From positions 1 to 27,310 of the forward strand of contig JASFKF010000001.1 of the NCBI GenBank assembly GCA_050118775.1: a DNA stretch of 27,310 bases. The letters are read 5' to 3'. The position numbers and the translations under genes are program-made. The DNA comes from Syntrophobacterales bacterium. Its GTDB lineage: Bacteria > Desulfobacterota > Syntrophobacteria > BM002. The first letter of the stretch is position 1, and each line of letters begins with the position of its first letter. The notes beneath the pieces are model-generated. The model worked only from the letters and a program-made list of their open reading frames with translations, was not told the origin of the DNA and searched no databases. Shown here in pieces: positions 698 to 25,833 of the stretch.

Positions 698-997
698 ATG
701 AGTTTGCTCGTTGATTTTTCCATGTTTCCCCTGGACAAGGGCGAGAGCGTTAGCCCATACGTGGCCCGGTTAGTAAGAGTAATCAGAGAAAGCGGGCTGC
801 CACACAAGCTCGGCCCCATGGGCACCAGCATCGAAGGGGAATTCCACCAGGTTATGGCTGTAGTGACCCACTGCTTTGAAGAATTGAGCAAGGACTGTGA
901 CAGGGTGTATTTTGCCATCAAGGGTGACTACAGGAAAAAGGGTGAGGATCGAATCACCGCCAAGGTGGAGTCGGTGGAAGAGAAATTGGAGATTTAA
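698..997 (+). CDS. MTH1187/YkoF-like thiamine-binding protein (DUF77)
   Basis: 99 aa with family pattern FSMFPL..GESVSPYVAR...SGL.HKLGPMGTSIEGE...RVYFAIKGDYR...KVESVE; GGAG RBS upstream. Confidence 0.9.
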   Translation: MSLLVDFSMFPLDKGESVSPYVARLVRVIRESGLPHKLGPMGTSIEGEFHQVMAVVTHCFEELSKDCDRVYFAIKGDYRKKGEDRITAKVESVEEKLEI

Positions 998-1045
998 GAT
1001 TGCAGATTTGAGATGTGAGATGTGAGATCTGAGATGTGAAATATC
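997..1045. repeat. Heptamer tandem array, AGATGTG type (7 in-register units)
   Basis: agattgc agatttg agatgtg agatgtg agatctg agatgtg aaatatc, starting at the stop of the upstream gene. Confidence 0.9.
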
Positions 1046-1086
1046 GTTTACCATTTACGTATTGAACGAGTTCAACAATTTATCGG

Positions 1087-1117
1087 ACGCTATGCGCTAT
1101 GCTCTCTGCGCTATGCG
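1087..1117. repeat. Heptamer array, CTATGCG type
   Basis: acgctatgcgctatgctctctgcgctatgcg; 29/31 identical to 20302-20332. Confidence 0.9.
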
Positions 1118-1127
1118 AATCTCTACT

Positions 1128-1178
1128 GACTTCTGGATTCTGGATTCTGGATTCTTTGATTTTAGATTGCGGATTGAA
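1128..1178. repeat. Heptamer array, GGATTCT type, grading into agattgc/ggattga units
   Basis: gacttct ggattct ggattct ggattct ... agattgc ggattga. Confidence 0.85.
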
Positions 1179-1209
1179 GCTAACAATAAGCTGAAAGGGG
1201 GGAGTGAGC

Positions 1210-1782
1210 ATGAAAATGGTTTGTCTACTTGGTAGCCCCAGACCTAAAGGAAATAGTGCGGCCATGGCCGCGAAATTCTGCGAGACCGCCGAGAATTTAG
1301 GCGCTGAAGTTACCACCTTTGCCTTGAACAAGCTGAAATACCGTGGCTGTCAGGCCTGTATGACCTGCAAAACCAAGCTGGAAAAATGCGTACTCAAGGA
1401 CGACCTAGCAGAGGTCTTGGACGCCATCCGCGATGCCGAGGTGCTGGTGCTCGCCACTCCCATCTATTTCGCCGAGATCTCCAGTCAGCTAAAAACTTTC
1501 ATTGATCGAACCTTCTCATATCTGGTACCCGATTATCCGACCAACCCCAACCCATGCAGGCTCTCCCCGGGCAAGAAACTGGTTTTCATCGAGGCTCAGG
1601 GGCTCCCTGACGAAAGCGCGTTTGCAGACGTATTTCCCAGATACGATTTCATTTTCAAATGGTATGGATTCAGTGAAAGCTATCAGATTCGTGCCTGCGG
1701 AGTATTTAACAAAGGCGAGGTGGAGAGGCGGGAGGACATAATGAAATTGGCCGAAGAGACAGCCAGAAAGATCATGGCTTGA
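1210..1782 (+). CDS. Flavodoxin-family protein (iron-sulfur flavoprotein Isf / NADPH-dependent FMN reductase-like)
   Basis: LGSPRPKGNS FMN-binding loop, compact Cys motif CQACMTCKTKLEKC, ATPIYF and LKTFIDR. Start placed at ATG 1210 by GGAG spacing (track start 1204). Confidence 0.9.
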   Translation: MKMVCLLGSPRPKGNSAAMAAKFCETAENLGAEVTTFALNKLKYRGCQACMTCKTKLEKCVLKDDLAEVLDAIRDAEVLVLATPIYFAEISSQLKTFIDRTFSYLVPDYPTNPNPCRLSPGKKLVFIEAQGLPDESAFADVFPRYDFIFKWYGFSESYQIRACGVFNKGEVERREDIMKLAEETARKIMA

Positions 1783-1845
1783 GTGTCTTGGCGCCATTAC
1801 TCCGGCTCTTCGCTCTCAGTCCCTGCTGGCAGCTGCAAGCTGGTT

Positions 1846-1970
1846 CCTAACACCTGAAACCTAAATTCTTGAGTCTTGGTCTTTATTAATTAATTCTGTC
1901 TCCTTACTCCATGCCCCATGCTCCATGCCCTATGCCATATCGCACATCTCACATCTAGTTTTCCATTTGT
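1846..1970. repeat. Composite heptamer region (CACCTGA/AACCTGA, CCATGCY, CACATCT units)
   Basis: cctaacacctgaaacctaaa (1846-1865); ctccatg ccccatg ctccatg ccctatg ccatatc gcacatc tcacatc (1907-1955); then agttttccatttgtt, also found after the CACATCT array at 12852. Confidence 0.85.
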
Positions 1971-2356
1971 TTCATGAACTTAAAGATGTTTCATTGGGGT
2001 GGAATGAAATCTCGGGGCATTACAAACTATTAGATCCGAATCAAATTCACATCTTCTTTTGGGATCTTGAATTTCCTCGATGTTCTCATATTGGCAAGAG
2101 ATGTTGAGTCCTAGTCCTGCAAAATCAACCTAAATATTTTGTTAAGACCCTCCCCAGGCTTGAGTTTAAATGACTTGTCAATACTAACATTTAAACATCG
2201 CTATTCCTTTAACGAAAATTCCCCAGTCTTAAGACTATCAAACCCTCTTCAACCAGTTATGGTTACCGCTTAACACACAACGCTCCCCATCCTTTGCTGG
2301 TTCCCGTAGAGAGCGAGTTCTTATTATTTCACCCTATTTATTTTCTTTTGCAACGA

Positions 2357-2386
2357 TTGACTTAAAAGGCTGTTTCATCCTATACT
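2357..2386 (+). promoter_or_regulatory. Putative sigma70 promoter for the TerB-like gene
   Basis: TTGACT-N18-TATACT about 60 bp upstream of ATG 2448. Confidence 0.5.
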
Positions 2387-2447
2387 TCGCCCCTATCGAC
2401 GGGGAATACTGAACAGAAACGCCGTAGCCTAAGGGGAGGGAAAGACG

Positions 2448-3008
2448 ATGGATCCGAAGAAAATACTTGCAGATGCCCGAACTCTAGAGGAAGCTTTCTT
2501 CGCTAAGGATAACGCCCGACTGCTCGAGCAGATGCGGGAGAAAAAGCAACGTGAGGAGCTGCGTGAGGTAGTTCAGATCAAGGATGAAGCATTTCTCGAT
2601 CGGTTGATCGAGCTGGGGATCAATCCCGAGACGGTGCTGGCGTTGACACTCGTGCCGCTGACGGCAGTGGCCTGGGCCGACGGCATACTGGAGGATCGCG
2701 AGCGCGATGCAGTCATGAAGGCCGCCGAGGAGAAGGGGGTATCTCCGGGGACCGCCGGACACCAGCTGCTCGAAACGTGGCTTTCGCGCCGGCCTGACCC
2801 AGAGGTGTTTGAGATTTGGAAGAAATACGTCCGAGGTATCTGGATGACCTTCACCGACGATGAGCGTCGGCGGATGCGGGAGAGGATGCTCGATTGGGCG
2901 GTGGCAGTAGCCGAGTCGGCCGGTGGATTCCTTGGGCTGACCTCGAAGATTTCTCCGTCGGAGCGGGCAGTCATCAAGGAGTTGGAGAACGTGCTCAGGG
3001 TGTCCTAG
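2448..3008 (+). CDS. TerB-like domain protein with N-terminal coiled-coil
   Basis: 186 aa; AVAWADG..EDRER and VAESAGGFLG...ISPSE motifs typical of TerB-fold proteins; GGGAGG RBS; noticeably GC-rich. Confidence 0.75.
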   Translation: MDPKKILADARTLEEAFFAKDNARLLEQMREKKQREELREVVQIKDEAFLDRLIELGINPETVLALTLVPLTAVAWADGILEDRERDAVMKAAEEKGVSPGTAGHQLLETWLSRRPDPEVFEIWKKYVRGIWMTFTDDERRRMRERMLDWAVAVAESAGGFLGLTSKISPSERAVIKELENVLRVS

Positions 3009-3114
3009 CAGCCTCGCCTTGCCACACGCAACGGTGCTTCAGCAGATAGTTATTATACTCCAGACTTCTCCTCCTGAGACCAAGTTACAATATCTTGGTT
3101 TAAACTAAGAAAAT

Positions 3115-3139
3115 GCGGAGTCCTTGGCTCCGCTTTTTT
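3115..3139 (+). terminator. Rho-independent terminator
   Basis: GCGGAG-tccttgg-CTCCGC followed by TTTTTT. Confidence 0.65.
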
Positions 3140-3603
3140 GTTATCAAGATCTTGTGCCTGATCAAATCCAAGGGAAGCGTGAAGGATGTAATACAAACTT
3201 CGATAATGATCGAAATGCCTTTACATCTTTGGGTTACTTCGTGTTTGTCAGGTGAAGGATGCTTATCCTCCGTGGTATCCCCAGGTGCTACAGCTATGGC
3301 TCCTATCGAATGAGTAAGCCCTAACGTTACAAACCTGTGCCGTTAGCGTAAAGACGTGATCTCTAGAACAGAGAATCAGGCATGCATTCAAAAACATTGT
3401 GACCAAACCATCAACGACCACGTATATGATATAGCTCATCCGATTCAAAATGTGAAACGAACGATACAGATGTGCTGATTTGTTAGGTCCAATCAAATCT
3501 ATTTGCCATAGAGCAGAAAGGGAGGAGAAATCACAAGCAAAGCTGTTGGTTAATTCTGGCTAGTCTAATCTAATGCGAAAAATAAGAGACGGAGGGTGTA
3601 TTT

Positions 3604-4011
3604 ATGAAGCTATTGCGTATGAGTTTGGTTCTTGCTTGTGTTCTCGCTGCTACACTATGTTGGCTTCTCTATCCTGCTGCCGCGCTCAGCGCTGACATTC
3701 AGATCGATGTTGCGCCGAACGTCCTAAACATACAAAGTGAAGGCGTAATTGTGACGGTTCATACGGATATTGCCTACAGTGCAGTGGAAGGAGCGAGCGT
3801 ATATCTCAACGGTGTTGCAATCAAATACTGGAAGGCAGATGCACGGGGCAACTTTGTGGCTAAGTTCGATATGGATGAGATAAAGACCTTAGACGGCTTG
3901 ATAATAGATGACTACAATACGCTCGTGTTGAATGGATACACCACTGATGGTGATACATTTATAGGTGAGCAGGATATTAGGGTCATCGACATTATCCCTA
4001 AAGGGAGTTAA
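3604..4011 (+). CDS. Exported beta-rich hypothetical protein
   Basis: 135 aa; signal peptide (…AAALSA/D); mature part IDVAPNVLNIQSEG.IVTVH…FVAKFD…GEQDIRVI; GGAGG RBS. Confidence 0.85.
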   Translation: MKLLRMSLVLACVLAATLCWLLYPAAALSADIQIDVAPNVLNIQSEGVIVTVHTDIAYSAVEGASVYLNGVAIKYWKADARGNFVAKFDMDEIKTLDGLIIDDYNTLVLNGYTTDGDTFIGEQDIRVIDIIPKGS

Positions 4012-4046
4012 TACGCAAAGCGTAAATTGAGTTGAATATCCTATAA

Positions 4047-4080
4047 AAGGCAGGGTTGAGAATCACTCTGCCTTGTTGTT
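4047..4080 (+). terminator. Probable terminator of the 3604-4011 gene
   Basis: aaggcagggt…actctgcctt stem (one G-U pair) followed by gttgttt. Confidence 0.55.
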
Positions 4081-4370
4081 TCGGAAGATGTGTATTGCAT
4101 ACTTTAATCCCCACTCTATCCTTCGAGAGTCCGCTACCAAATATAGTAGTTGTCTCTAAATGTCGGATATAAACATAGCTGCTATAGCTGTTGAGTATTA
4201 CAAAGACGAAATTCTTAACATCTCCAAACCTTATCTGCAAAATCTAACGGCTTACGATTATTCCCGTGCTGCCTTCACTAGTAAAAGATCCCATCTTTGA
4301 TTGATTTGCTGTATTCAGTCTCAGCAATTGTTGTAGACCTAAGCAACTACAGGACTACTACAAAAACAAG

Positions 4371-4396
4371 AAAAGGCCCCTTTCGAGGGGCCTTTT
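4371..4396. terminator. Strong bidirectional rho-independent terminator
   Basis: Perfect 11-bp stem aaaaggcccct-TTCG-aggggcctttt, extendable with caaaaac/gtttttg. Confidence 0.8.
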
Positions 4397-4863
4397 GTTT
4401 TTGGTCCTTTGATGACTTTCGATTCAAAGGTTAAGCTTCATTGCTTGTCCATTTTTTGACCGTTATCCAGATGGGGTTACATTTCTCATCATCGAGAGAC
4501 ATTCAGAGAGCTTTAGATATGCTCCTCATACCTTCAATCCTCGCCAAGTTTAGGTATTGGCAAGAGATAGAAACTTGCCGTTTCCAGAGACTTATCACCA
4601 TATCTTGTCCGAGCATTCGTAAATACCCTTTCGACGGTAGAGATATTATCTGCAATCTTCTAGTGGTTTAGATCAATTCGTCACAAGCATCATTTTGCAC
4701 CTGCCTTTTGCAAGCTGGAATGTGTCTCCCCGATTTGAGTAATCGATACATTCTTCTGCTAACTACCGCTTTTAGATGTATTGTTTGGGTACAAGATCAT
4801 CCCTTGCCCCAACGCACAATAACTCCGGAAAGACCGTTATGAGCAATCTTAATGAAAAACATC

Positions 4864-4926
4864 TTGACAAAATTTCAGCATCATGAAACATTAGTATTAA
4901 ACTGCTGTTTAAATCTTATGTTTTAA
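4864..4926 (+). promoter_or_regulatory. TetR promoter region with palindromic operator
   Basis: TTGACA at 4864-4869; palindrome TTAAAC-tgct-GTTTAA at 4897-4912; weaker overlapping ttaaa…tttaa up to 4926, just upstream of the TetR start. Confidence 0.6.
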
Positions 4927-4946
4927 CTCAGGCAAAAGGGTAATAT

Positions 4947-5699
4947 ATGTCTGCTTCAGTGAAAGAAAACACCAAGAAAAAGCTGTTGTGTGCGGCCATT
5001 AAGGTCTTTGCCGACAAGGGGTTCGATAGCGCAACGGTTAGGGATATTTGCTTCCAGGTTGGTGCGAATGTGGCTGCGGTGAATTATTACTTCGGAGGCA
5101 AAGAGAGCCTTTACAGGTCCATCCTCGAAATGATGTTTAAAAAAGGCCAGGAGTTTAGGCGTGAGGAGGAATCCAGGCAGCAGGAGGGCCAGAGCCCTGA
5201 CGAAAGGTTGCGCCACTATATTGAGAGAGTCTGCCGGTGGACCTTCGGCGTGAGTGAACAAGACCCCAGCTCATGCGATGAGATGCTTAGTGATCAAGAC
5301 ACCTCTAGCTTTAATGAGCTTCTGGTTGATCTGCGCAAGATTTTCCTGAGGGAAATGACCCGTGCCACCACCCCAGAACTGGATGAAAAGGTCTACCAGC
5401 TTCTCCGTGACGACACCGACGAGATCCGCTCCATCATTCGGGAAATCATTGGCCATGATGCTCCTGAAGACGTGGTTCGGGATTGCGACTGCTCCATTAT
5501 CGGCCAGATCCTGTATTACGACACCCACTGGTCTGTCCACCTCCGCCTCAACCCTGACCGTCCTGGCATGCAGGAGTATCTGGGGCAACTGGTCGATCAC
5601 ATAACCCGCTTTTCCTTGGCGGGACTAGAGGCAACAAGAAAGGCACTTGAGGCTACCAAGATTCCTTTGGCCCCCCTTGATCGAAAAGAATCAAAATGA
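4947..5699 (+). CDS. TetR/AcrR-family regulator with CerR (DUF1956)-like C-terminal domain
   Basis: HTH: AAIKVFADKGFDSATVRDIC..VGANVAAVNYYFGGKESLY; C-terminal CSIIGQILYY…HITRFSLAGL. Confidence 0.9.
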   Translation: MSASVKENTKKKLLCAAIKVFADKGFDSATVRDICFQVGANVAAVNYYFGGKESLYRSILEMMFKKGQEFRREEESRQQEGQSPDERLRHYIERVCRWTFGVSEQDPSSCDEMLSDQDTSSFNELLVDLRKIFLREMTRATTPELDEKVYQLLRDDTDEIRSIIREIIGHDAPEDVVRDCDCSIIGQILYYDTHWSVHLRLNPDRPGMQEYLGQLVDHITRFSLAGLEATRKALEATKIPLAPLDRKESK

Positions 5700-5729
5700 C
5701 ACCCTAATTGACACTGAAAAGGAGATACG

Positions 5730-6422
5730 ATGAAGCGACTACTCTCTAAAGACGATTTTTTGGCCTCACTCTCATTAATTTTCCTCGCCCTGTCCATGAT
5801 AGGTTCTGTGTCACCAGCTTCTGCAAGGCAAGTATCATATGATATGCCCACCAATATTAATTCCTCGGCAGAATACCTCCTCTTTGTCCACAATTATTAC
5901 GTGGAAAAAAACGGTCCGGATGGGGCGTGTAAATACTACGACCTTCTGAATGCTTTTGCAGACAGTGGTTTTACCGTGATAAGCGAGATCCGGTCTGGAG
6001 AAATCATCCCCTGTGTATATGCAGAGAAAATTGTAGGTCAAATCAGGACCCTTCTGGATGCGGGCGTCCCACCCGATAACATCACGGTCGCAGGGCATTC
6101 AAAAGGTAGTGTCATCGCTCTTTGCGTTGCTTCAAAAGTAGGAAACCCCAAAGTCAACTTCGTTGTAATGGCAGGCTGTGAAATAAAACCGCTCTTGGAT
6201 GTATACCCAGATTACAGAACCCTCAAAGGTCGTTTTCTCTCAATCTATGCCTCTTCCGATTCAGTTGCTAGCAGCTGCAACATAGTCTTCTCGCTGGCTT
6301 CAGAGGGTTTCTCGAGCACTGAAATAAGATTGGAAAGCGAAGGTGGTCATGCACTTTTCTTCAAGCCCGAAAAAATATGGCTTACTCCTGTAATGAACTG
6401 GATTGGAAAAACACAACCTTAG
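5730..6422 (+). CDS. Secreted alpha/beta hydrolase
   Basis: Signal peptide; nucleophile elbow GHSKG; candidate Asp (ASSD) and His (GGHALF). Confidence 0.85.
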   Translation: MKRLLSKDDFLASLSLIFLALSMIGSVSPASARQVSYDMPTNINSSAEYLLFVHNYYVEKNGPDGACKYYDLLNAFADSGFTVISEIRSGEIIPCVYAEKIVGQIRTLLDAGVPPDNITVAGHSKGSVIALCVASKVGNPKVNFVVMAGCEIKPLLDVYPDYRTLKGRFLSIYASSDSVASSCNIVFSLASEGFSSTEIRLESEGGHALFFKPEKIWLTPVMNWIGKTQP

Positions 6423-6452
6423 TTCGGATCATTGAATTTAGAGCATCACTCA

Positions 6453-6567
6453 CCCACATTGGAGATTTTTTTAATCATAAGTCAGCAGCCATATTTATAA
6501 AGAACTGCATTCGACCACTTTTCTGTCGATTTATAGGACCATGTGTTGTTCTATTAAGGCCGAAAAA
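6453..6567 (+). repeat. Diverged intergenic duplicate, copy A (copy B at 8064-8175)
   Basis: 6515-6567 vs 8123-8175: 41/53 ungapped identity including exact tgttgttctattaa; weaker similarity continues upstream. Confidence 0.75.
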
Positions 6568-6687
6568 ATGAAATATGTATATCCTGAAGAAAACAAAAAG
6601 CTTCAATTCCAGCTCAAGTTGTTTATTTTAACTATTTTCGCTTTTATATCACTGAGGCAATTCGCATGTGAAGGGATCAGACAATGA
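6568..6687 (+). CDS. Possible 39-aa small hydrophobic ORF
   Basis: MKYVYPEENKKLQFQLKLFILTIFAFISLRQFACEGIRQ*; ATGA overlap with the next gene; no clear RBS. Confidence 0.25.
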   Translation: MKYVYPEENKKLQFQLKLFILTIFAFISLRQFACEGIRQ

Positions 6688-7805
6688 GACTACTGATTAT
6701 CTTCACACTGATATCGGTGACGATCTCATTCCTGGGGGCTCCGTTGCCCCTGTCGGCATGTACGGCTTTTTATCTTAAAGAAGGGTCGTTTCAGATACTG
6801 GGCAAGAATTTAGATTGGTACTTCGAGGAGGGCTTGATATATGTCAACAAGCGACAAACCAGCAAAGATGCCCTGATGATTGATCCATCCAAGCACGGGC
6901 AACCTGCCCGCTGGACAGCTCGTTACGGCAGCGTCACATTTAACCAGCATGGCAGGGAAATGCCCTTGGGAGGTATGAATGAAAAAGGCTTGGTGGTGGA
7001 AGCCCTGTTTCTTGGCGAGACCCGCTATCCGGCACGGGACCATCGACCGACCTTGCGAGGTCTGCAATGGGTTCAGTATCAACTTGATATGCACCGTACC
7101 GTTGAGGAAGTGATTGCCAGCGATGCCCAAATCAGAATCCGACCGTCCAGATCCCCAGGTCATCATTACCTGGTGGCGGACCGCAGTGGAGATTGCGCCA
7201 CTATTGAGTTTATCAACGGTGTGATGGAATACCACCGGGGTGACCTCCTTTCTGTTAGGGCCCTGACCAACACCACCTATGCCAAATCACTGCGTTACTG
7301 GCATAGGGGGCGGCCTCCAGTGTTCGACACCTACGATTCAGTCTGGCGCTTTATAAGGGTTGGTAGAAAGCTACAGGATTACGATCCAGCCCTTCCGGCG
7401 GTTGATTATGCCTTCAAAATACTGACTGCGGTGGCTCAGGCTGAATTAACTCGTTGGAGTATCGTCTATGATATCAAAAACCAGTGTATCCATTTTCTCA
7501 CGCGGGGGCATCGATTGATCCGGTATTTTGATTTGAATACTTTTGATTTCAGCTGTGCCACGCAAGTCAAGCAACTCGACATGCAGGCCCTCCTAGCAGG
7601 GGATGTTTCTCGGCGATTCGATGACTACGATTACCTGGTAAATCGCGATCTGATCACTAAGATATATCGAAATAGCCCGTACATGAGGGATTTCCCCGCC
7701 GAGGTCTTGGAAGCCATGGCACGTCAACCATTAGATCTTCCCTGCGATCCGGGCATCTCTGATGCGTTCCCCAATAGTGATTTGGGGTCAGACCAGGCGA
7801 AGTAA
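6684..7805 (+). CDS. Linear amide C-N hydrolase (choloylglycine hydrolase / penicillin V acylase family, Ntn hydrolase), secreted
   Basis: Signal peptide ending LSA then catalytic N-terminal Cys (CTAF); GKNLDW, GGMNEKGL, H(Y)LVADRSG, LTN motifs. Confidence 0.92.
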   Translation: MRLLIIFTLISVTISFLGAPLPLSACTAFYLKEGSFQILGKNLDWYFEEGLIYVNKRQTSKDALMIDPSKHGQPARWTARYGSVTFNQHGREMPLGGMNEKGLVVEALFLGETRYPARDHRPTLRGLQWVQYQLDMHRTVEEVIASDAQIRIRPSRSPGHHYLVADRSGDCATIEFINGVMEYHRGDLLSVRALTNTTYAKSLRYWHRGRPPVFDTYDSVWRFIRVGRKLQDYDPALPAVDYAFKILTAVAQAELTRWSIVYDIKNQCIHFLTRGHRLIRYFDLNTFDFSCATQVKQLDMQALLAGDVSRRFDDYDYLVNRDLITKIYRNSPYMRDFPAEVLEAMARQPLDLPCDPGISDAFPNSDLGSDQAK

Positions 7806-7838
7806 AGGCAAAGGGCTCAAGGCACATGGCAATGCAAA
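7806..7838. repeat. Degenerate heptamer array (AAGGCAC type)
   Basis: aaggcaa agggctc aaggcac atggcaa tgc directly after the stop codon. Confidence 0.45.
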
Positions 7839-17813: not shown

Positions 17814-18940
17814 GCAGTGGGGGACGTGCCAATTGGTGGAAAGCGGGAGTCTTGGGGGTCTTACTGTTCCTGGTTGCCTACGGGCTAGTGGCATTAGAGT
17901 CCAGAGGGATAAACAAGGAAAATGAACGGAGAACGACATACAGCGCCGCAGCTGGGGGATACAAGGCGCTTTATCTCTGGCTTCATAATCTGAACCTGCC
18001 GGTTAGAAGATGGGAGAGAACACTTAACGACCTTTCAGCCGAAGCATCGGTGCTGGTGATGGTAGAGCCCGAACTCGGTCCAACCAAAGGGGAGCTGGAG
18101 ACGCTCAAAGAATGGGTTGCCAATGGAGGGACTTTCGTTCTCATAGGCAGACAGCCAAATTTGTTCTGGTTAAACATGGGGTTTGAGTTGCAGCCGGTGT
18201 TTGTTATGCAGCACTTGCAAGATAACAAAGAGCCTCTACAATTCCAAGCTGGACCTTACACACAGGGGATTAAGACCCTTGATTACAATGGCCATCCTGA
18301 CCTCAGTTCGTCACGCCCGCAAGGTGTTGTACATGTCAGGAGCGGCGGAACCGGACTACTCATGGTTTTAGATGAAGGTGAAGGGCGGGTTATCGGTCTT
18401 TCCGATCCCAGTTTGTTCTCTAATGGGTCGCTGCGAGAGGGGGACCACGCTCGGCTTGCCCTTAATCTAATGCTGGCCCACCTTGGCAATGGGGAATTGC
18501 TCATCGATGAATATCACCATGGGTATGGCAGGGCGACATCGGTGCTGGCACACCTCTTTAGTTCCAGAGCTCTAATACCCCTGTTGCAAGCAATATTAGT
18601 TCTCCTTGTGCTCTGGGCCAGCAAGGGAAGACGTTTTGGGCCTCCCAGACCGCTATTACAGCAGGAGCGTAGTTGCTCTCTTGAGCATGTGCGGGCCATG
18701 GCACAGCTGTACCAGAGGGCGAAGGCGCGAGTCCTGGCTCTAAATGCTATGGTGCGTTGGATTGAAGAGGAAGCAAAAAGTATCCTGGTCCACAGGGAGC
18801 GCAACCTTCGAAATAAATTGCTGATTGCACGACAGCAGCTAGAAATACCAGACACCACAGAAAAAGAGCTTCTAAATCTCTCCCGTGGGCTTTACTCGGC
18901 CTTGGAGCAGGCTCGCAGGAGAGCGACTCACGTCGCATAG
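17810..18940 (+). CDS. DUF4350 domain protein
   Basis: TTYSAAAGGYKALYLWL, LKEWVANGGTFVL, LFSNGSL…DHARLALNL, IDEYHHGY, RRFGPP; ATGA overlap with DUF4129. Confidence 0.88.
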   Translation: MSSGGRANWWKAGVLGVLLFLVAYGLVALESRGINKENERRTTYSAAAGGYKALYLWLHNLNLPVRRWERTLNDLSAEASVLVMVEPELGPTKGELETLKEWVANGGTFVLIGRQPNLFWLNMGFELQPVFVMQHLQDNKEPLQFQAGPYTQGIKTLDYNGHPDLSSSRPQGVVHVRSGGTGLLMVLDEGEGRVIGLSDPSLFSNGSLREGDHARLALNLMLAHLGNGELLIDEYHHGYGRATSVLAHLFSSRALIPLLQAILVLLVLWASKGRRFGPPRPLLQQERSCSLEHVRAMAQLYQRAKARVLALNAMVRWIEEEAKSILVHRERNLRNKLLIARQQLEIPDTTEKELLNLSRGLYSALEQARRRATHVA

Positions 18941-18963
18941 CGCCAAGCGCTCGGCGCAGAGCG
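18934..18963. repeat. Heptamer array, CGCATAG type (reverse of CTATGCG)
   Basis: cgcatag cgccaag cgctcgg cgcagag cg; the same units are reused at 20170-20199. Confidence 0.75.
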
Positions 18964-19119
18964 AGGAAAATATCTTCAAAGTAGAAAGCTGGGACTAAGT
19001 ATTCAAACTTAGTACTTATGACGGACCATTTGAAAAAGAGTAATGAATCCAATGAGTGAATAAAAGCTATCCTAAGGCTACGCGCAATGCCATAAGCGCA
19101 TTGCGCCACGGAGTGGAAA

Positions 19120-20073
19120 ATGCCGGCAGAAGTGAAAAAGTTGGCGGACCGAATCTCAGCTGAGATATCGAAAGTGATCGTGGGGCAACAGGAGGGGGTT
19201 ACTCACTTGCTGGTGGGTCTCCTGGCAAGAGGACATGTCTTAATGGAGGGTGTTCCGGGATTGGCCAAAACCCTTCTGGCCAAAACCTTGGCTTTCATCC
19301 TCAAGGCTGAGTTCACCCGAATTCAGTTTACCCCTGATCTAATGCCCGCCGACATTTTGGGAACGCAAATTTTTGATTTACAAAGCAGGACCTTTCACCT
19401 TCGCCAGGGTCCAATTTTCACCGAGATTCTTTTGGGCGACGAAATCAATCGGGCACCACCCAAAACTCAGTCCGCCCTACTTGAGGCTATGGAAGAAAGG
19501 CAGGTGAGCATTGACGGCAAGACACTGCCTTTGTCTGAGAGCTTTATGGTGGTGGCAACCCAGAATCCCATAGAGCAGGAAGGAACTTACCCGCTTCCAG
19601 AGGCACAGCTGGATCGTTTCCTCATGAAGATAGTTTTGCATTACCCTGCAGAAAGCGAGGAGCGCGAAATACTTTCCAGATATGGGACCTCGTCAGAACC
19701 CCACGACCTGGAGGGGAGGGGAATAGGTAGACTGGCCGGAGGGGACACGGTTGTTCGATTTCGGCAAAGAGTGAGCCAGGTGCGAGTGGAGGAGGGCATT
19801 GTGGCTTATGTGCAAAAGTTGCTAACAGGGACGCGACGCTCTCCTCATCTCCATCTTGGAGTTAGCCCGAGGGGAGGAATAGCCCTGCTTAGAACAAGCC
19901 AGTGTCTGGCCGCTGTACGGGGGAGGGACTTTGTTGTTCCAGACGACGTCAAGGAGATGGCTCCAGCTGTTCTCAGGCACAGGGTGATTTTGAGGCCAGA
20001 GGCTGAACTTGAAGGACTGACGCCTGACCGGGTCCTTTCGCAGATTCTGGATGGCATCCCCGTACCGAGGTAG
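19120..20073 (+). CDS. moxR: MoxR-family AAA+ ATPase
   Basis: EGVPGLAKT, RIQFTPDLMPADILG, DEINRAPPKTQSALLEAMEE, ATQNPIEQEGTYPLPEAQLDRF, AVLRHR. Confidence 0.97.
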   Translation: MPAEVKKLADRISAEISKVIVGQQEGVTHLLVGLLARGHVLMEGVPGLAKTLLAKTLAFILKAEFTRIQFTPDLMPADILGTQIFDLQSRTFHLRQGPIFTEILLGDEINRAPPKTQSALLEAMEERQVSIDGKTLPLSESFMVVATQNPIEQEGTYPLPEAQLDRFLMKIVLHYPAESEEREILSRYGTSSEPHDLEGRGIGRLAGGDTVVRFRQRVSQVRVEEGIVAYVQKLLTGTRRSPHLHLGVSPRGGIALLRTSQCLAAVRGRDFVVPDDVKEMAPAVLRHRVILRPEAELEGLTPDRVLSQILDGIPVPR

Positions 20074-20174
20074 GTCGCATTAGCCACCTTCCTTCGTAAC
20101 AATCTCTCGCCCGCTCTCTTGGGCTTGACTGCAGTCAATCCCTGCGGTCTCTCGAGCCCTTGAGAAAGTCGCCA

Positions 20175-20334
20175 AGCGCATAGCGCGAGGCGCAGAGCGT
20201 AACTTCAGATCCATTGGAGATATTTAAAATTAGCCAGGGCAAGATGGAAATTGCTCAATCCTTTCAATCGAAACAACTATTACTGCGGGTAATATTGTAA
20301 AACGCTATACGCTATGCTCTTTGCGCTATGCGCT
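20175..20334. repeat. Inverted heptamer-arm element (about 160 bp)
   Basis: Left arm agcgcatagcgcgaggcgcagagcgt vs reverse complement of right arm agcgcatagcgcaaagagcatagcgt: 22/26, outer 12 bp perfect; AT-rich core of about 100 bp. Confidence 0.8.
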
Positions 20335-20383
20335 ATTTGTGAGCTCTGTGAGAGTTAGAAAGGTCAGACAAAAATAACAGACG

Positions 20384-21715
20384 ATGAGGACGGAAAGCCA
20401 AATACAGAAACCCTGGGAAAGATTTCCGATTCCCACTAATCTTACCCTGTGTCTAATGATCCTGGGCGTTGGATTTGCTGCTCTGCTGAACTGGAAGGTG
20501 GTCTTTGGGTTGGATCTTGGAATCCTGGTTATGTCTGTTGTGGATTACACCCTGACATTCAAGGGTGGCGAAATCCAGGGAGAAAGAATCTGCCCGCGCC
20601 ATTTCTCCATCGGTACAGAGAACAGTATAGAAATACTCTTAAAGAACACCCTTCCCTCCCGCAGGAGAGTGCGGGCGCGAGATCAAACTCCTACAGAATG
20701 GGAAGCTGCGCCAGTCCTTAAGGCGGTGATTCCGGGGAGATCTTCCTTGAGCCTTGATTATCCAGTTGTTCCTCCGGAAAGAGGGAAATACCGTTTCGGC
20801 AAACTTTTCATAAGAGTAGAGGGCCCTATGGGGCTAGTATCCAGACCCATGAGGATCAGTGCATCGGAGGAGATAAAAGTCTATCCCAGTCTTCAGCCCC
20901 TACGCTGCGCTGACCTTGCCACCTATAGGCGTGTGGCCCATCGGGGACTCAAACCAACCAGATGGAGGGGCGAGGGACGGGAATTCGAGTCTTTGAGGGA
21001 ATACGTGGAAGGTGATGACCCTCGCAAGATCCACTGGAAAGCCACTGCCAGGTTCGACCACCCTATAGTCCAGCAGTATCAGACGGAAAAAAACCAAATA
21101 GTGATGATATTGCTGGATGTGGGCCGGTTAATGAGTGCGGTGTCGGAGGGGAAAACAAAACTGGATTATGCCCTGGAGGCAGCTCTTCACCTAGCCCACA
21201 CCGCACTTGTAGGAGGGGATCAGGCTGGCATTCTGGCCTTTGCCGACCGGGTTATCTCCTTTATTCCCCCCAAGAAAACGGTTGGACAACTACAGTTTAT
21301 TTTAGAGGGAACCCTGTCCTTGCGGCCCCTTCTGGTGGAACCCCAGTACGAACAGGCACTTCTTTGGCTCCGGTCAAAAGTTCGGCGGCGAAGTTTGGTG
21401 GTGATCTATACGGATCTTCTCGACGAAGTAGCTTCAGAGAATCTTCTGAGCGCAGTATCACTGCTGAGACCAGTTCATCTGCCCCTGTGTGTCGCCATCA
21501 GGGAGTCGGAATGGGATGAATTGTTGAACGATCCGCCCACTGAGGTACAAGGGGTGTACGAGAGGGCTGTACTCCAAGAGCTCCTTCACCAGAGGAGTAA
21601 AGCTCTGGGGGGCTTGGTGCAAAAAGGAGCCTTGGCCATGGATTTGCCCCCCTCAAAGCTGTCAATAGGAACAATGGAGCGTTATTTGGAGGTGAAAAGA
21701 CGAGGCTTGCTCTGA
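20384..21715 (+). CDS. DUF58 domain protein (vWA-like MoxR partner)
   Basis: GEGREFESLREYVEGDDPRKIHWKATAR, ILLDVGRLM, GDQAGILAF, RRSLVVIYTDL; N-terminal TM segments. Confidence 0.93.
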   Translation: MRTESQIQKPWERFPIPTNLTLCLMILGVGFAALLNWKVVFGLDLGILVMSVVDYTLTFKGGEIQGERICPRHFSIGTENSIEILLKNTLPSRRRVRARDQTPTEWEAAPVLKAVIPGRSSLSLDYPVVPPERGKYRFGKLFIRVEGPMGLVSRPMRISASEEIKVYPSLQPLRCADLATYRRVAHRGLKPTRWRGEGREFESLREYVEGDDPRKIHWKATARFDHPIVQQYQTEKNQIVMILLDVGRLMSAVSEGKTKLDYALEAALHLAHTALVGGDQAGILAFADRVISFIPPKKTVGQLQFILEGTLSLRPLLVEPQYEQALLWLRSKVRRRSLVVIYTDLLDEVASENLLSAVSLLRPVHLPLCVAIRESEWDELLNDPPTEVQGVYERAVLQELLHQRSKALGGLVQKGALAMDLPPSKLSIGTMERYLEVKRRGLL

Positions 21716-22674
21716 GTTGCAGGTAACATGAGATAGCAAAGGAGAAAGACAAAAAGCAAACCAGCCGTTAGAAACTTGATCCACGGAGGCAGGTGAGCCG
21801 GGGAGAAAAAGCCTTCCACAACTCCTGCAAAGATAAGAAGAGGGACGCAGCCAAGAATAAGCTGGACAGCATTTCTACCTCGCTGAGTTAAAGCTTCTTT
21901 TCTTGACAGATCGCCAGGTACGATAAGAGATGATCCAAGCAGAAGGCCTCCTCCTCCGGCTATAAAAATGGCGCTAAGCTCGATGACCCCATGAGGAAGA
22001 ACAAAGGACCAAAAATCCACACTTAGACCGTGCAGGTGGCACAAAGCGGCCAGTGTGCCCAATAAAAGCCCGTTAAAGGCCATGATGTAGACGGTCCCCA
22101 GACCAAAGGTTATTCCGAGAGCAAAGGCCAAAAAAGTCACAGAGATGTTATTTGTCATTATTACGCTGGAGGCTACGGGACGGACAGCCAAAATTGAGTC
22201 GAACCAGACCTTGCCCCCTTCCACTTGTTGAATAAGATGAGGGGGGGCGACCAGAGGAATGAAAGTGTCGTCAATAAGGCCGGCAGCGAAACCATATACA
22301 CAGCCAAGAAGAAAGATTGCCAGGGCAGCTAGGGTCCAGGAACATGTGGCCCTGAAAGTTTGAGGGAAAGTGGAATGGAGAAAACTCCACAATCTAGTCC
22401 AGCCGGGGGTAGGGCTGCGGTAGATTTGGCCATGAGCCCGAGCCACCAAGTGGTTCAAATAATCTAGCAGTTCGTCGGGGAGGCCCGCCTCCTGTTGAAA
22501 GGCTTGTAATCGAGCCAGGTCAGCGGTTGCCTCCCGGTAAAGACGGCCCACATCGGGGAGGTCCGAAGGTTGCAAGTTTCTCCCTTTACCCCTTTCCAGG
22601 GATTGAAGGAGTTTTTCTAACCTCTCCCATCGTGGTCTTCTGGCCTCGATAAACTTTTCGATGGATTGACTCAT
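21682..22674 (-). CDS. Stage II sporulation protein M (SpoIIM/DUF95) family membrane protein
   Basis: W.RLE.LL, LYREATADLA, YLNHLVARAHGQIY, IMTNNISVTF..FALG, FNGLLLG, LPHGVIEL, AGVVEGF. Confidence 0.92.
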   Translation of the reverse strand: MSQSIEKFIEARRPRWERLEKLLQSLERGKGRNLQPSDLPDVGRLYREATADLARLQAFQQEAGLPDELLDYLNHLVARAHGQIYRSPTPGWTRLWSFLHSTFPQTFRATCSWTLAALAIFLLGCVYGFAAGLIDDTFIPLVAPPHLIQQVEGGKVWFDSILAVRPVASSVIMTNNISVTFLAFALGITFGLGTVYIMAFNGLLLGTLAALCHLHGLSVDFWSFVLPHGVIELSAIFIAGGGGLLLGSSLIVPGDLSRKEALTQRGRNAVQLILGCVPLLIFAGVVEGFFSPAHLPPWIKFLTAGLLFVFLLCYLMLPATQSKPRLFTSK

Positions 22675-22702
22675 GGCCCTAGGGTAGCAAAAGGCTGCTG
22701 GG

Positions 22703-23497
22703 ATGGAAACAGCAAAAGAGACTCTAAAAATTCAAACCCCAGAGCACGTGGGTTTTCGCTACGTACTCGCCGGATTGGGCACACGGTCTACAGCTTTTTT
22801 ACTGGACACGATTGTTAGGGGTCTTTTTATCCTATTTATTTTTTTGGTAATATTACTTCTTGCTAGATGGCTGCCAGCATTCGATCCTACCGGCATATTT
22901 GCAGCGATTCCTAAAACCTGGTTTTTTGCCCTGGGAGTGCTTGCCTATGGGGTTGTGGATTTGGGCTATTTCTTGATTTTTGAAGCCTTATGGAGCGGGC
23001 AGACCCCCGGAAAAAGAATGCAAAAGCTCCGGGTGATCAGAGTCAATGGTCAGCCCATCGGCTGGCTGGAGTCGTCGATTCGGAACATCTTAAGGGCGGT
23101 GGACATATTGCTGGGCTTTTACCCCCTGGGACTATTTGTAATGTTTCTGAGTTCTCGCAGCCAGAGAATCGGAGACTATGCCGCCGGCACCGTGGTGATA
23201 GTTGAACGCAGACGCAACGTGCCCATGGATAAAACTCGCCTGCGCACAACTTCCAAGTTGAACCTTCCGGAGCTTGAACTCCATGTTTCGACCCTTGAAC
23301 CCAAGCAATACCAGGTCATAAGGTCTTTTCTCCAGAGACGGCAGGCAATGGACGCATCCCACCGCCGTGAGCTTGCCCTTCTCCTGACCAGCCGTTTGAT
23401 GAAAAAATGGGGTATTTCATTCGGAGGTGATATCCCGGATGAGTCCTTCCTCGAGGAAATCGTCGGGATCTACGAGAGAACCAGAAGAGCCATCTAG
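22703..23497 (+). CDS. RDD family protein
   Basis: TPEHV.F.Y.LAGLGTRSTAFLLD, GQTPGKR…LRVI…G, IRNILRAVD, QRIGDYAAGTVV. Confidence 0.95.
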   Translation: METAKETLKIQTPEHVGFRYVLAGLGTRSTAFLLDTIVRGLFILFIFLVILLLARWLPAFDPTGIFAAIPKTWFFALGVLAYGVVDLGYFLIFEALWSGQTPGKRMQKLRVIRVNGQPIGWLESSIRNILRAVDILLGFYPLGLFVMFLSSRSQRIGDYAAGTVVIVERRRNVPMDKTRLRTTSKLNLPELELHVSTLEPKQYQVIRSFLQRRQAMDASHRRELALLLTSRLMKKWGISFGGDIPDESFLEEIVGIYERTRRAI

Positions 23498-23500
23498 GGA

Positions 23501-23637
23501 ACTAGGCACTAGGAACTAAGTACTAGGCACCAATTCTCAAGGTGTCAGGTTTCAGGTGTCAGGGAGACAAAACAAAAAGTCTGAACACTGAAACCTTGGT
23601 CTTTACTCCATGCTCTATGCCCCATGCCCCATGCCAT
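23501..23637. repeat. Composite heptamer element (ACTAGGC; inverted GGTGTCA/CTGAAAC arms; CCATGCY)
   Basis: actaggc actagga actaagt actaggc accaat (23501-34); ggtgtca ggtttca ggtgtca … ctgaaca ctgaaac (23541-96); ctccatg ctctatg ccccatg ccccatg ccat. Confidence 0.9.
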
Positions 23638-23765
23638 GAATGAAGGCTTTAGCCAAATGACCGTGTAGCGCAGTGACGGCCATAAACTTAGCAATGACAA
23701 TCGAATCCGGAATAGAAATTGCTAAGGTATAGTGGGACATTTCCCAAAAAGAGCAGGGGGTAACC

Positions 23766-25085
23766 ATGACTCAGAGTGGTGCCAGCGCAGAGGCCAAAAG
23801 ATTCGTTATAAGCGTGACAGGACTCAAGCAAGGAGCCTCTCCAGAGGCCTTGGTTGCTGCTCTCCAGAGTATCTTTCCAAAAAAAACCGCCGAGCAAATA
23901 CGCGGGGCCTTGGCCAGGCTTCCATTGCTATTAACCCGCTCTGCCACTGAAGAGCAGGCCGAAAAGGTCAAAAGTTTCCTCGAGTCGAAAGGGGCTATTT
24001 TGAGGTTGGTCACCTCTACTGCATCGGCAACCACGGCTTATCCTGCATCAGCGGCTAGACCTCCAAGCGCGGCTCCGGTCGCCCCTTCTAGGTCGGAGAT
24101 GGTGAGGGCAACCGCTGCTCCGCAGGAGGCAAAACCCTACAGTGGAATTGAGCGCAGGGCCAAGCCTCGGGTCCACCCCGGCATTGGGATTCATCCCATG
24201 GGAATTGGGGAAATCCTGGATCGTTCTTTTCGCCTTTTGCGCCAGCACTTTTTGCTGTTCTTCTTCATTCTATTGATCCCCCAGGGAACTTTCTTTGCAT
24301 TCAACAAAGGAAGTCAGATTTTTGTCACAGGAGGAGTGGAGCAAAGTATGACAGCGGGCATGGGTATAGGATTGATGGTCTCCGTTATACTAGCTGTGCT
24401 GATAATGATGATTCTCCAATTTTGGGCCCAGGGGGCACTAATCCATGCAGTTTCCGAAACCTATCTGGGTCATGCAACCTCGCTGGCCAGCTCTTACGGT
24501 GCCATGCGATCACGTTTGGGGCGACTTTTGGGCACCATGTTTCTTTGGGGAGTTTTGATCTTTCTGGTGCCGGCATTACTGGGCATAGCCATGGCAATTC
24601 TCGTTCCCATCATCGCCGCAGTGGGCTTCGCAACCACGACTACAGCAATACTATCAATAGTACTGGTTCTCGCCGGGGTCATCTGGTTCTTTCACCTATT
24701 TCTCAACTGGCTTCTGGTGGACAAAGTCGTGGTTCTCGAGGGAAAAAGCTGGGGAAATGCCCTGCGTCGCAGCAAAGAGCTAATGAATACCCGCACCGAG
24801 CAGGGATTTTGGAAAAGGCCAAAAAACAAGGCCGGTCTGATTTTGCTCCTAGGCTTTCTGATTGGGGTGGGGATCCACCTTCTCTTTCAAGTGCCCGGTT
24901 TGCTAAGTCAAATGTTTCTGCCCATGAGCCTCGGGGGACTGACTCTGACCCTTCAGCAAATTCTCAATGTGATAGCCACCTCACTGGCGACGGTTTTCAC
25001 TGCCATCGCCATGATCCTTTTCTACTATGACATCCGGTTGCGAAGTGAAGGCTTCGACTTAAAGGCCATGGCAGAACATTTATAA
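23766..25085 (+). CDS. Polytopic membrane protein (GPDPase-membrane-domain-like) with N-terminal L7/L12-CTD-like domain
   Basis: C-terminal part starts PMGIGEILDRSFRLL, has about 6-7 TM segments and ends FYYDIRLRSEGFDL; N-terminal LPLLLTRSATEEQAEKVKSFLESKGA; AGGGGG RBS. Confidence 0.85.
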   Translation: MTQSGASAEAKRFVISVTGLKQGASPEALVAALQSIFPKKTAEQIRGALARLPLLLTRSATEEQAEKVKSFLESKGAILRLVTSTASATTAYPASAARPPSAAPVAPSRSEMVRATAAPQEAKPYSGIERRAKPRVHPGIGIHPMGIGEILDRSFRLLRQHFLLFFFILLIPQGTFFAFNKGSQIFVTGGVEQSMTAGMGIGLMVSVILAVLIMMILQFWAQGALIHAVSETYLGHATSLASSYGAMRSRLGRLLGTMFLWGVLIFLVPALLGIAMAILVPIIAAVGFATTTTAILSIVLVLAGVIWFFHLFLNWLLVDKVVVLEGKSWGNALRRSKELMNTRTEQGFWKRPKNKAGLILLLGFLIGVGIHLLFQVPGLLSQMFLPMSLGGLTLTLQQILNVIATSLATVFTAIAMILFYYDIRLRSEGFDLKAMAEHL

Positions 25086-25144
25086 TAGGACGGTCATCTC
25101 CGTAGTCGCAGCAGACAATTGGTGAAATGTTTGGCTTAGGCCGG

Positions 25145-25693
25145 TTATCTACCTTTGGGCCACTTACGGACAAATTCCGCCTGTATTTCTGTCTCCGGCG
25201 ACGGAAGATGTGAGATGGGGTCATTTCGTCGAAGCTCGCCGAGCAGATCCAGGGCTGCCTCTCCCACTGCCATTCCATGGCGAGCCAGGTAACAGCCTAC
25301 CACTGTGCCAGTCCTGCCACGTCCTCCCCAACAATGAAGATAAACGGCGGGATTGTGCTCCATGGCCCGATCAATCTCATCCAGGATTGAAACCATAACT
25401 TCCACCGGAGGAACGTTCATATCTCGAATGGGCATGTGCACAAGTTCTATGGGGAGGTCCATTTCATTTGCCATGGTTTGAAGCTGGTCCTCATAGGGAA
25501 CAAATTGCTCTCCCTGGAAATTTTCTTCATCTCTCTCCATGAGACTTACTATGTGGCGAATCCCTTGTTCAAAAAGATTTTTCAGTTTTTCCCGAGCCGT
25601 TACCGAATCTCTGCTACCAGGATAATAGCCGGCGAGAAATTTTCCTGGCACAACCCAGTATGACCGGGTAAAGGGTACAGAGTAAGTTTTCAT
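25145..25693 (-). CDS. Dual-specificity / protein tyrosine phosphatase family protein
   Basis: CX5R P-loop VYLHCWGGRGRTG; SYWVVPGKFLAGYYP; PIRD; PET..Q. Confidence 0.92.
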   Translation of the reverse strand: MKTYSVPFTRSYWVVPGKFLAGYYPGSRDSVTAREKLKNLFEQGIRHIVSLMERDEENFQGEQFVPYEDQLQTMANEMDLPIELVHMPIRDMNVPPVEVMVSILDEIDRAMEHNPAVYLHCWGGRGRTGTVVGCYLARHGMAVGEAALDLLGELRRNDPISHLPSPETEIQAEFVRKWPKGR

Positions 25694-25742
25694 CGTCTGT
25701 CACTAATAGCGGGAATCCGTGAACAGTGGCACCCCAGTTTTT

Positions 25743-25833
25743 ACTAGGCACTAAGCACTAGACACTAGGCACCAATGATACCCTTTGTTATACACTTCTT
25801 GTAGTGCCTAGTGCTTAGTTCCTAGTGCCTAGT
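25743..25833. repeat. Inverted ACTAGGC heptamer arms (hairpin-forming)
   Basis: actaggc actaagc actagac actaggc acc … gtgccta gtgctta gttccta gtgccta gt; the right arm is a 29/30 reverse complement of 23501-23530. Confidence 0.92.

Follow-up and report, generated by a model that had tools for sequence, protein, structure and literature searches.

The first contig of a Syntrophobacterales genome (GenBank assembly GCA_050118775.1, contig JASFKF010000001.1, positions 1 to 27,310) carries, between its genes, short tandem arrays of seven-nucleotide units. The window is this whole stretch of 27,310 nucleotides, and the genome to which it belongs, hereafter G000, is a metagenome-assembled genome (MAG) of 2.39 Mb in 463 contigs, with a GC content of 48.8% and a completeness of 61%. 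The arrays are probably the arms, and the decayed solitary arms, of hairpin cassettes built around an S23p gene, together with gene-less derivatives of these cassettes that are copied as whole modules; within this reading, the 7-nt changes in array length are best explained by slippage. S23p (PF05635/TIGR02436) is a four-helix-bundle family known from the intervening sequences of 23S rRNA that bear an open reading frame (ORF). A reading of the window made from its sequence only had named a four-helix-bundle protein among the trans-acting genes worth considering, and this is the candidate that fits, since S23p genes are bracketed by arrays and diverge together with them.

S23p genes between polar tandem-repeat arms

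A complete cassette is composed, in this order, of a G-rich arm, about 20 nt containing a ribosome-binding site, the PF05635/TIGR02436 gene, 0-40 nt, and a C-rich arm complementary to the first. The arms consist mostly of 7-nt units, sometimes of 8 or 9, usually in three to five copies. Our comparison set comprised 17 further species of the window's genus, 18 genomes of the array-rich family that includes it, and 31 relatives; every one of the 18 family genomes has PF05635, as do 27 of the 31 relatives. G000 has two PF05635 genes, and the copy on contig 42 has a GGTAAAC arm on one side and a GTTTACC arm on the other.

The association between gene and arrays was evaluated with a strict and a sensitive definition of bracketing. 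The strict test required arrays called by Tandem Repeats Finder (TRF) on both sides within 350 nt, with reverse-complementary units and at most one mismatch; 12 of 29 S23p loci are bracketed in this way against 17 of 1350 G000 genes, an excess of about 30-fold (Fisher p 2e-14). After the strict test 60 S23p loci were added, and among 90 genus cassettes a sensitive scan for arrays on both sides of the gene within 130 nt, applicable to 87 of them, detected flanking arrays on both sides in 66. The periods of the best arrays around the cassettes are 7 (112 arrays), 8 (20) and 9 (15), and the G-rich arm precedes the gene in 53 cassettes versus 12, or in 24 cassette clusters versus 7.

The gene and the arms of a cassette are inherited together and diverge together. 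In fact, an identical arm unit is shared by 74% of the pairs of S23p proteins with at least 80% identity, by 18% of those between 65 and 80%, and by about 0.5% of those below 50%. Within cassette clusters the units are one-step neighbours of each other, as in the series GATTGCG, GATTGGA and GATTGTA, a pattern implying that all units of the two arms change in concert. Selection on the gene is purifying, with a median dN/dS of 0.09 over 33 pairs. Among solved structures the G000 protein is closest to XCC0516 of Xanthomonas campestris (2GSC, E 2e-29, five chains).

S23p cassettes sit between protein-coding genes, for example in the gap between lexA and imuB. On contig 42 of G000 (L198 1-4085) the operon reads lexA, S23p, Y-family polymerase, dnaE2; the name imuB was given to the polymerase, which has an IMS domain, by its position before dnaE2. 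Among eight species this gap is found in four states. Full cassettes, with four different arm units, are present in G000, G013, G005, G012 and G008, and their S23p proteins are only 30-45% identical while the LexA proteins are 83-98% identical. G009 has a half-deleted cassette in which the GCGCATA/CGCTATG arms are both retained, while the gene is reduced to its last ~125 nt by loss of the first ~265 nt. G010 has a gene-less hairpin whose GCGAGAC unit and left flank are the same as in the G013 cassette, and in G007 the gap is just 34 nt long and near-empty. A remnant of a CGCTATG arm directly precedes the imuB start in every species. Sister species have thus gained, replaced and internally deleted cassettes at a single gap, with gene-less hairpins and later solitary arms as the remains. 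No target-site duplication was seen between filled and empty sites of this gap, and the gene-bearing form encodes no transposase.

As a separate observation, S23p cassettes occur repeatedly in the gaps of this lexA - Y-family polymerase - dnaE2 SOS mutagenesis operon (G000, G002, G005, G006, G008, G009, G010, G012 and G013); G013 has three of them in consecutive gaps of the operon, and the only S23p gene of the closed genome G002 is in the same operon. A functional tie between S23p and SOS mutagenesis was considered and rejected, this being one orthologous locus of the genus and the association not being seen outside the genus.

The repertoire of arm units connects the cassettes to the arrays that are devoid of a gene. 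The 65 arm units found in the 83 genus cassettes outside G000 match 569 of 1065 G000 arrays (53%) and cover 17 of the 25 commonest G000 unit classes, whereas in 5000 trials with 65 randomly drawn heptamers the average was 60 matched arrays and the highest count 255. Only exact canonical units were counted, a one-mismatch version having been dropped as too permissive (random sets matched 20%). Arm units taken from other families or from the wider phylum match G000 arrays at chance level. The resemblance extends beyond the unit: the right arm of the window hairpin at 25743-25833 agrees with the right arm of an S23p cassette of G008 at 32 of 33 positions by eye-count, including the order of variant units.

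Gene-less arrays and hairpins in the window and its genome

Arrays were called with TRF at a score of 30, with a 5th-order Markov simulation of G000's own contigs as background control. An enrichment of period 7, anticipated by the sequence-only reading, is borne out genome-wide: 1077 of 2327 TRF rows are period-7 arrays, against 36 in the control. Periods 14 and 21 account for 254 and 57 arrays. Periods 8 and 9 are also enriched in gaps, with 153 and 155 mostly intergenic arrays, and arrays of periods 6 and 10-12 fall mainly in coding sequence, in numbers close to background, so that the excess of period 7 stands after composition control. The 8-mer arrays (TGGAGTAA, GTCATTAG, AGGAATTG) and the 9-mer arrays (AACGACTTC, GCGAGACGA) of G000 behave like heptamers and serve also as arms of S23p cassettes (L111, L209, L109, L278, L297); therefore period 7 is preferred, not fixed. 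The arrays use 200 of 1172 possible canonical unit classes, and they are not assembly artefacts, because their positions agree across independent JGI, NCBI and Logan assemblies.

The period-7 arrays are mostly intergenic (976 of 1077, or 91%), though 81.5% of G000 is coding according to our gene calls, which are crude and consist of ORFs with a hexamer coding score. About 38% of the gaps of at least 100 bp hold one or more arrays, which make up 6.1% of the non-coding bases. The absence of arrays from coding sequence, claimed from the window, is correct there, where all of them are outside gene calls, and does not extend to the genome, where 56 lie mostly within the crude calls. A frequent start at a stop codon, also proposed, is moderately true, as 60 of 543 arrays begin within 5 nt of one, with a median distance of 68 nt. 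Arrays most often have about four units, and 222 of them have 4.5-5.5 copies while 34 have 5.5-6.5. This drop of about 6.5-fold between five and six units, placed beside the five S23p chains per crystal entry, may be a coincidence or a constraint.

In the window TRF returns period-7 rows at 985-1039, 1088-1117, 1131-1155, 1909-1936, 12820-12850, 12905-12927, 16571-16594, 16603-16631, 20303-20336, 23501-23530, 23540-23563, 23608-23635, 25743-25772 and 25802-25833. Nine array loci had been proposed; seven are recovered by TRF at period 7, and the other two (7806-7838 and 18934-18963) are short, degenerate stretches below threshold, seen by eye. The features are the following, none of them being assigned to a strand.

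985-1039, unstranded: AGATGTG-type array (G-rich arm type), 7.9 copies by TRF, beginning at the stop of gene 698-997
1088-1178, unstranded: three adjoining arrays, CGCTATG at 1088-1117, TTCTGGA at 1131-1155 and a GATTGCG remnant to 1178 (TRF and sequence)
1909-1971, unstranded: CCATGCY array, CACATCT array and conserved flank AGTTTTCCATTTGTT (TRF and sequence)
7806-7838, unstranded: weak degenerate period-7 stretch, AAGGCAA-like (by eye, below the TRF threshold)
12778-12866, unstranded: complete gene-less hairpin composed of an AGATGTG-type arm, a loop of ~22 nt, a CACATCT-type arm and the conserved flank (RNA fold and family alignment)
12905-12927, unstranded: AATCCGC array (TRF), whose unit is the arm of an S23p cassette clade
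16333-16666, unstranded: hypervariable gap with AAATCCG-, CTGACYT- and CTATGCY-type arrays and short dispersed modules (strain alignment)
18934-18963, unstranded: degenerate GCGCATA-type array overlapping the stop of gene 17810-18940 (by eye, below the TRF threshold)
20170-20336, unstranded: inverted pair of a GCGCATA-type array at 20170-20195 and a CGCTATG array at 20303-20336, with a spacer of ~105 nt (TRF)
23501-23635, unstranded: ACTAGGC array, GGTGTCA/GGTTTCA hairpin at 23540-23598 (fold z -3.5) and CCATGCC array (TRF)
25743-25833, unstranded: gene-less hairpin of four ACTAGGC units, a 29-nt loop and four GCCTAGT units (TRF; fold -40.5/-48.5 kcal/mol, z -6.7/-7.7)

The window carries gene-less forms only, and complete S23p cassettes lie elsewhere. 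The CGCTATG and GATTGCG units at 1088-1178 are S23p cassette arm units in other genomes of the genus, and the flank motif AGTTTTCCATTTGTT is found again at 12852-12866. The window hairpins fold on both strands with z between -2.8 and -7.7; the RNA fold of the one at 12778-12866 has -31.9 kcal/mol and z -4.3, and its opposite strand folds too.

Pairing in inverted orientation is a general feature of the arrays. Arrays of the same unit at most 400 bp apart are inverted in 98 cases, with 29 expected, and direct in 9, again with 29 expected; loops have a median length of 26 nt. In a more sensitive scan 326 of 1065 arrays had an inverted partner no more than 300 nt away, against 94 for a random unit and 29 for a reversed unit. 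The pairs are also polar, since the G-rich arm comes first in 109 pairs versus 19 (37 versus 5 by unit class); this order is a real property of the element, because an inverted repeat reads identically on either strand. Gaps with hairpins lie between tandem, convergent and divergent genes in the ratio 78:8:5, with 65:12:14 expected (p 0.006), co-directional gaps being favoured. Intrinsic termination was tried as a function of the hairpins and rejected: a T tract directly follows 15-16% of them, with no excess over a background of 11%, and a scan with a simple terminator consensus, which is blind to loops longer than 8 nt, was at chance level.

The gene-less hairpins form dispersed families that are copied as whole modules. 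The commonest of these, the AGATGTG-type family to which 12778-12866 belongs, has at least 20 copies of about 100 nt in both orientations; the variant units of each arm follow one order throughout, the loops are alike and the flanks are partly common. Independent slippage is excluded for this family, because the same variant order, loop and flanks recur at 20 or more loci. The idea that a common origin, and not independent slippage, underlies the unrelated units is therefore upheld, by these modules, by the unit types shared with S23p cassettes and by the polar inverted pairs.

The arrays differ between species. The genes of the window and their syntenic counterparts in G013 and G002 give alignments at 85-92%, and the intervening gaps do not align and contain different arrays; the gap between the MoxR and DUF58 genes, for instance, has GCGCATA/CGCTATG arms in the window, CTCAGAG/CTCTGAG in G013 and a 9-mer array in G002. 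The same is true within the population. Sixteen population contigs, recovered from other metagenomes, share 99.3-99.9% identity with the window, and all their indels are within array gaps: one strain is without exactly one 7-nt unit at 20322, and in two strains the interior of the GGTGTCA hairpin is replaced at 23553-23581 with the arms unchanged. The gap at 16336-16640 has three unrelated alleles of 276, 80 and 235 nt, with flanking genes 99.5-99.9% identical among strains, and the modules that compose these alleles are found at dozens of other G000 loci. Hairpin interiors are thus swapped between near-identical strains, and the number of units shifts in steps of 7 nt. That the arrays could be invariant, ancestral low-complexity sequence is contradicted by these comparisons, since orthologous gaps are non-homologous within the genus and strains 99.8% identical differ.

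Some further observations concern the same regions. A 245-nt piece of the hypervariable allele (window 16417-16646) is found inverted and 88% identical at G013:C27 11187-11430, in a gap that is the orthologue of window 998-1203 and thus a different one. No population variants of gene 1204-1782 are on record. Window 1787-12076 contains about 10.3 kb (genes 2448-12062) without counterpart in the otherwise syntenic region of G013, where the flanking genes are ~130 nt apart; this is either an insertion here or a deletion there. The genes at 16710-25085 encode a MoxR AAA ATPase and DUF58/VWA, DUF4350, DUF4129, SpoIIM-like and RDD proteins, beside an SLT/LysM transglycosylase. Elsewhere in G000 an unrelated, non-heptamer repeat of ~220 nt has 14 dispersed copies with 87-99% identity (C174:1-338, C400:2318-2650 and 12 others), and contigs C3 and C386 match across several gaps at 93-96%, which may reflect a duplicated region or two co-binned strains.

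Distribution beyond the genus and competing explanations

The cassette is not confined to the window's family. PF05635 is found in 86 of 151 genomes sampled from the phylum, and elsewhere in the phylum 16 of 21 testable S23p loci have arrays on both sides, with a chirality of 12 to 0. In a sample of 201 genomes of the class that includes a Pseudomonas genome (Gammaproteobacteria) the gene is present in 38. Arrays bracket it at 18 of 27 loci, compared with 3 of 57 for control ORFs taken from these loci (Fisher p 4e-9); period 7 is that of 38 of the 45 best arrays, and chirality is 15 to 0. A high density of arrays is more restricted: in random regions of the relatives it is reached only in the window's family (11-54 per 100 kb) and in one other (13-26).

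Several results weigh against deriving the arrays from S23p cassettes. About two thirds of the arrays have no detectable inverted partner, and for the commonest unit class, ACATCTC (70 arrays), the sampled cassettes offer nothing closer than a unit with one mismatch. Neither a transposase nor target-site duplications nor defined ends were found. Arms are not always inherited together, as a G011 cassette at another locus encodes a protein 87% identical to that of G000 and has the same right arm, but its left arm is made of 9-mers. Four S23p-free relatives are at background density, but several S23p-bearing ones are likewise; in 20 further genomes of the phylum the array densities of S23p-positive and S23p-negative genomes do not differ significantly (Mann-Whitney p 0.37), and at least 16 arrays per 100 kb are reached by 3 of 10 S23p-bearing and 0 of 10 S23p-free genomes (Fisher p 0.21). 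In G072, which is 100% complete and devoid of a PF05635 match, 40 kb contain 5 arrays that look genuine. Finally, the closed G002 has one S23p gene and ~42 arrays per 100 kb of many unit types, and most of its array families are without a resident cognate gene. The presence or count of S23p genes was consequently rejected as a predictor of array density, being not significant across the phylum. S23p cassettes are regularly accompanied by such arms, but having the gene is not enough for arrays to fill a genome and may not even be strictly required.

These density results, together with the arrays of G072, count in favour of pure in-situ slippage, in which a polymerase would slip preferentially in 7-nt steps, so that any heptamer could expand locally and the association with S23p would be incidental. 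The idea of 7-nt steps is attributed to Mrazek et al. 2007 in passages of PMC4692102, where a heptamer excess in many unrelated bacteria is also mentioned, and the deletion of one 7-nt unit between strains is in agreement with it. Slippage cannot, however, yield an identical variant order, loop and flanks at 20 or more loci, and it leaves unexplained both the inverted partners with their fixed G-first polarity and the ~30-fold excess of bracketing around S23p genes. Moreover, the sharp fall in copy number above about five units is not the long tail of free expansion. As a complete account of the arrays we consider it unlikely.

A second possibility is that paired arrays are host regulatory sites, namely binding sites or RNA elements of a regulon of S23p or of another global regulator, as proposed by Aklujkar et al. 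for the paired repeats of Geobacter metallireducens (PMC2700814). The strong purifying selection on S23p would suit such a role, as would a pentameric fold (five chains in 2GSC) beside arrays that stop at about five units, and the preference of hairpins for co-directional gaps with avoidance of divergent promoter gaps. Against it, the arrays are conserved neither at orthologous gaps within the genus nor between strains 99.8% identical. G002 combines one S23p lineage with many unit families, and T tracts of the terminator type are not in excess. A regulatory origin is therefore judged improbable.

Mobilization by RAYT, the Y1 tyrosine transposase associated with repetitive extragenic palindromic (REP) sequences and their hairpin doublets (REPINs), had been put forward among the possible trans-acting functions. 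RAYT-like genes do exist, PF01797 matches being present in 17 of 18 genomes of the array-rich family, and the elements are hairpins dispersed between genes; but no arrays flank any of the four Y1_Tnp genes of G000, a RAYT is specific for a single REP sequence whereas the units here fall into ~200 unrelated classes, and G014 has 11 S23p genes and no PF01797 match, which makes this explanation very improbable. The weak Y1_Tnp matches lie in unusually long ORFs of ~270-335 aa (in G000 C85:1150-2124, C141:1267-2274, C239, C396), of which nearly every genome of the family carries between 1 and 12.

The last alternative, a retro-element in which S23p would act with a reverse transcriptase, as its relative Avd does, and hairpin RNAs would be copied into DNA, can almost be dismissed: PF05635 is the family used to find Avd (PMC10053308) and S23p has a weak match to the Avd model of diversity-generating retroelements, but at 25 bits it is far below the cut-off of 80 and argues against membership in these elements, RVT_1 (PF00078) has no match in the closed, array-rich G002, G010 and G012, nor in G013 and G000, and among the 17 other genomes of the genus just 6 give a match. 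A reverse transcriptase, which had been another suggested trans-acting gene, is accordingly missing from closed array-rich relatives.

If the arrays are indeed arms of S23p-type cassettes and their derivatives, the two arms would pair in the transcript of the host operon, as is suggested by the fact that most hairpins lie between co-directional genes, and by analogy with the stems of rRNA intervening sequences the paired arms may be processed by RNase III. The homogeneity of an array could be maintained by slippage together with repair that uses the opposite arm as template, and spread to new gaps might occur via array homology or a structure-specific activity, not via a sequence-specific transposase. 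A bolder proposal, which we hold to be doubtful, is that the S23p pentamer is the trans-acting factor, recognising hairpins with short-period arms whatever their sequence and helping to copy or stabilise them, and that its geometry dictates the period of 7 nt as well as the upper limit of about five units.

Known repeat systems and significance

Tandem heptamer repeats have been known in cyanobacteria since 1990 as short tandemly repeated repetitive (STRR) sequences, with the units CCCCAGT, TTGGTCA and CAACAGT for STRR1 to STRR3, and neither an origin nor a function is known to have been given for heptamer repeats so far. The comparison with STRRs, drawn already from the window, is apt for anatomy: both consist of tandem heptanucleotides, with few copies per array, several unit types and hundreds of intergenic sites. 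The differences are that the STRR1-3 units occur in 0, 1 and 0 G000 arrays, that ~200 unit classes are used here in a host of a different lineage from heterocystous cyanobacteria, and that the hairpin pairing, the polarity and the S23p link were not found described for STRRs in the literature searched. Passages of PMC4692102 (Rehm et al. 2015) cite an STRR report on Calothrix PCC 7601 and the report of Mrazek et al. in 2007 that heptamers are over-represented in many bacteria.

In Xanthomonas and Nostoc, GGGAATC / GGGGAYT arrays have been studied as G-quadruplex formers (PMC4692102). They resemble ours in being intergenic, mostly of ~4 units and sometimes in inverted pairs, and in differing in length and sequence between close species while the neighbouring genes are constant; theirs, however, have one G-rich unit, while here there are many units, mostly not prone to form G-quadruplexes. 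X. campestris pv. campestris, of the same genus as the XCC0516 S23p structure, carries GGGAATC arrays (PMC4692102). The TAACTGA repeats of marine Beggiatoaceae and of some Cyanobacteria and Bacteroidetes have a single unit (PMC4679880); they too are intergenic heptamer direct repeats, in 2-6 copies, near start codons and with a patchy phylogenetic spread, but they are almost never inverted (one case of 170) and TAACTGA is not used in G000.

The sequence-only reading knew of no description of such repeats in this kind of anaerobe, a point that is not supported. In Geobacter metallireducens three to five tandem units of 7-9 nt, in dozens of copies, were reported in 2009 and read as binding sites of a global regulator (PMC2700814). 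These are also mostly pairs on opposite strands at variable distance, in an anaerobic host; compared here by description only, they differ in that their description drew no link to a gene cassette or to turnover.

A parallel to a complete cassette is the 23S rRNA intervening sequence of Coxiella burnetii, which has three to four GACAGAT units upstream of S23p, in a copy number that varies between strains, and forms a stem from terminal inverted repeats that is cut by RNase III; it is considered a selfish element, and ORF-bearing intervening sequences are also present in Leptospira and Brucella (PMC4990558). Both systems place an S23p gene within a stem of terminal inverted repeats, with heptamers upstream of the ORF. 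The Coxiella element, however, resides in helix 45 of 23S rRNA, while our cassettes are between protein-coding genes, have arms that are wholly tandem repeats, and encode an S23p under purifying selection that in Coxiella is decaying. A search of four single-contig genomes of the family gave no LSU rRNA match, their rRNA operons being probably masked. As for REPINs and miniature inverted-repeat transposable elements (MITEs), the likeness is in short, palindromic, non-coding and dispersed elements whose gene-less forms outnumber the gene-bearing ones, and the difference is that neither a cognate transposase nor a target-site duplication was found here and that the arms consist of many unrelated tandem units.

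We found no paper tying STRR-like arrays in general to S23p cassettes, most subscription journals being outside the coverage of the search. What is new here is the decay series at lexA-imuB, the co-divergence of gene and arms, the overlap of repertoires, the estimate of selection, the exclusion of a reverse transcriptase and the negative density test.

For the host population, the arrays are the main source of structural difference among near-identical strains. They also have a practical consequence, since they break metagenome assemblies: many population contigs stop at arrays, and the MAG itself is in 463 pieces. In a wider perspective, a defined gene cassette gives a testable origin to a class of repeats that was previously descriptive, its anatomy, an S23p gene between polar tandem-repeat arms, is alike in at least two phyla, and the S23p link joins two old puzzles, the STRR-like repeats and the ORF-bearing intervening sequences of rRNA. 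Should the bolder proposal of the S23p pentamer as trans-acting factor be correct, a single ancient system of selfish cassettes, spread across bacteria, would have given rise to cyanobacterial STRRs, to the heptamer arrays of Xanthomonas and Geobacter and to the intervening sequences of rRNA. This would represent a new mobility mechanism having as its signature the fixed G-first polarity, which might result, for instance, if 3' ends were extended at either side of an insertion.

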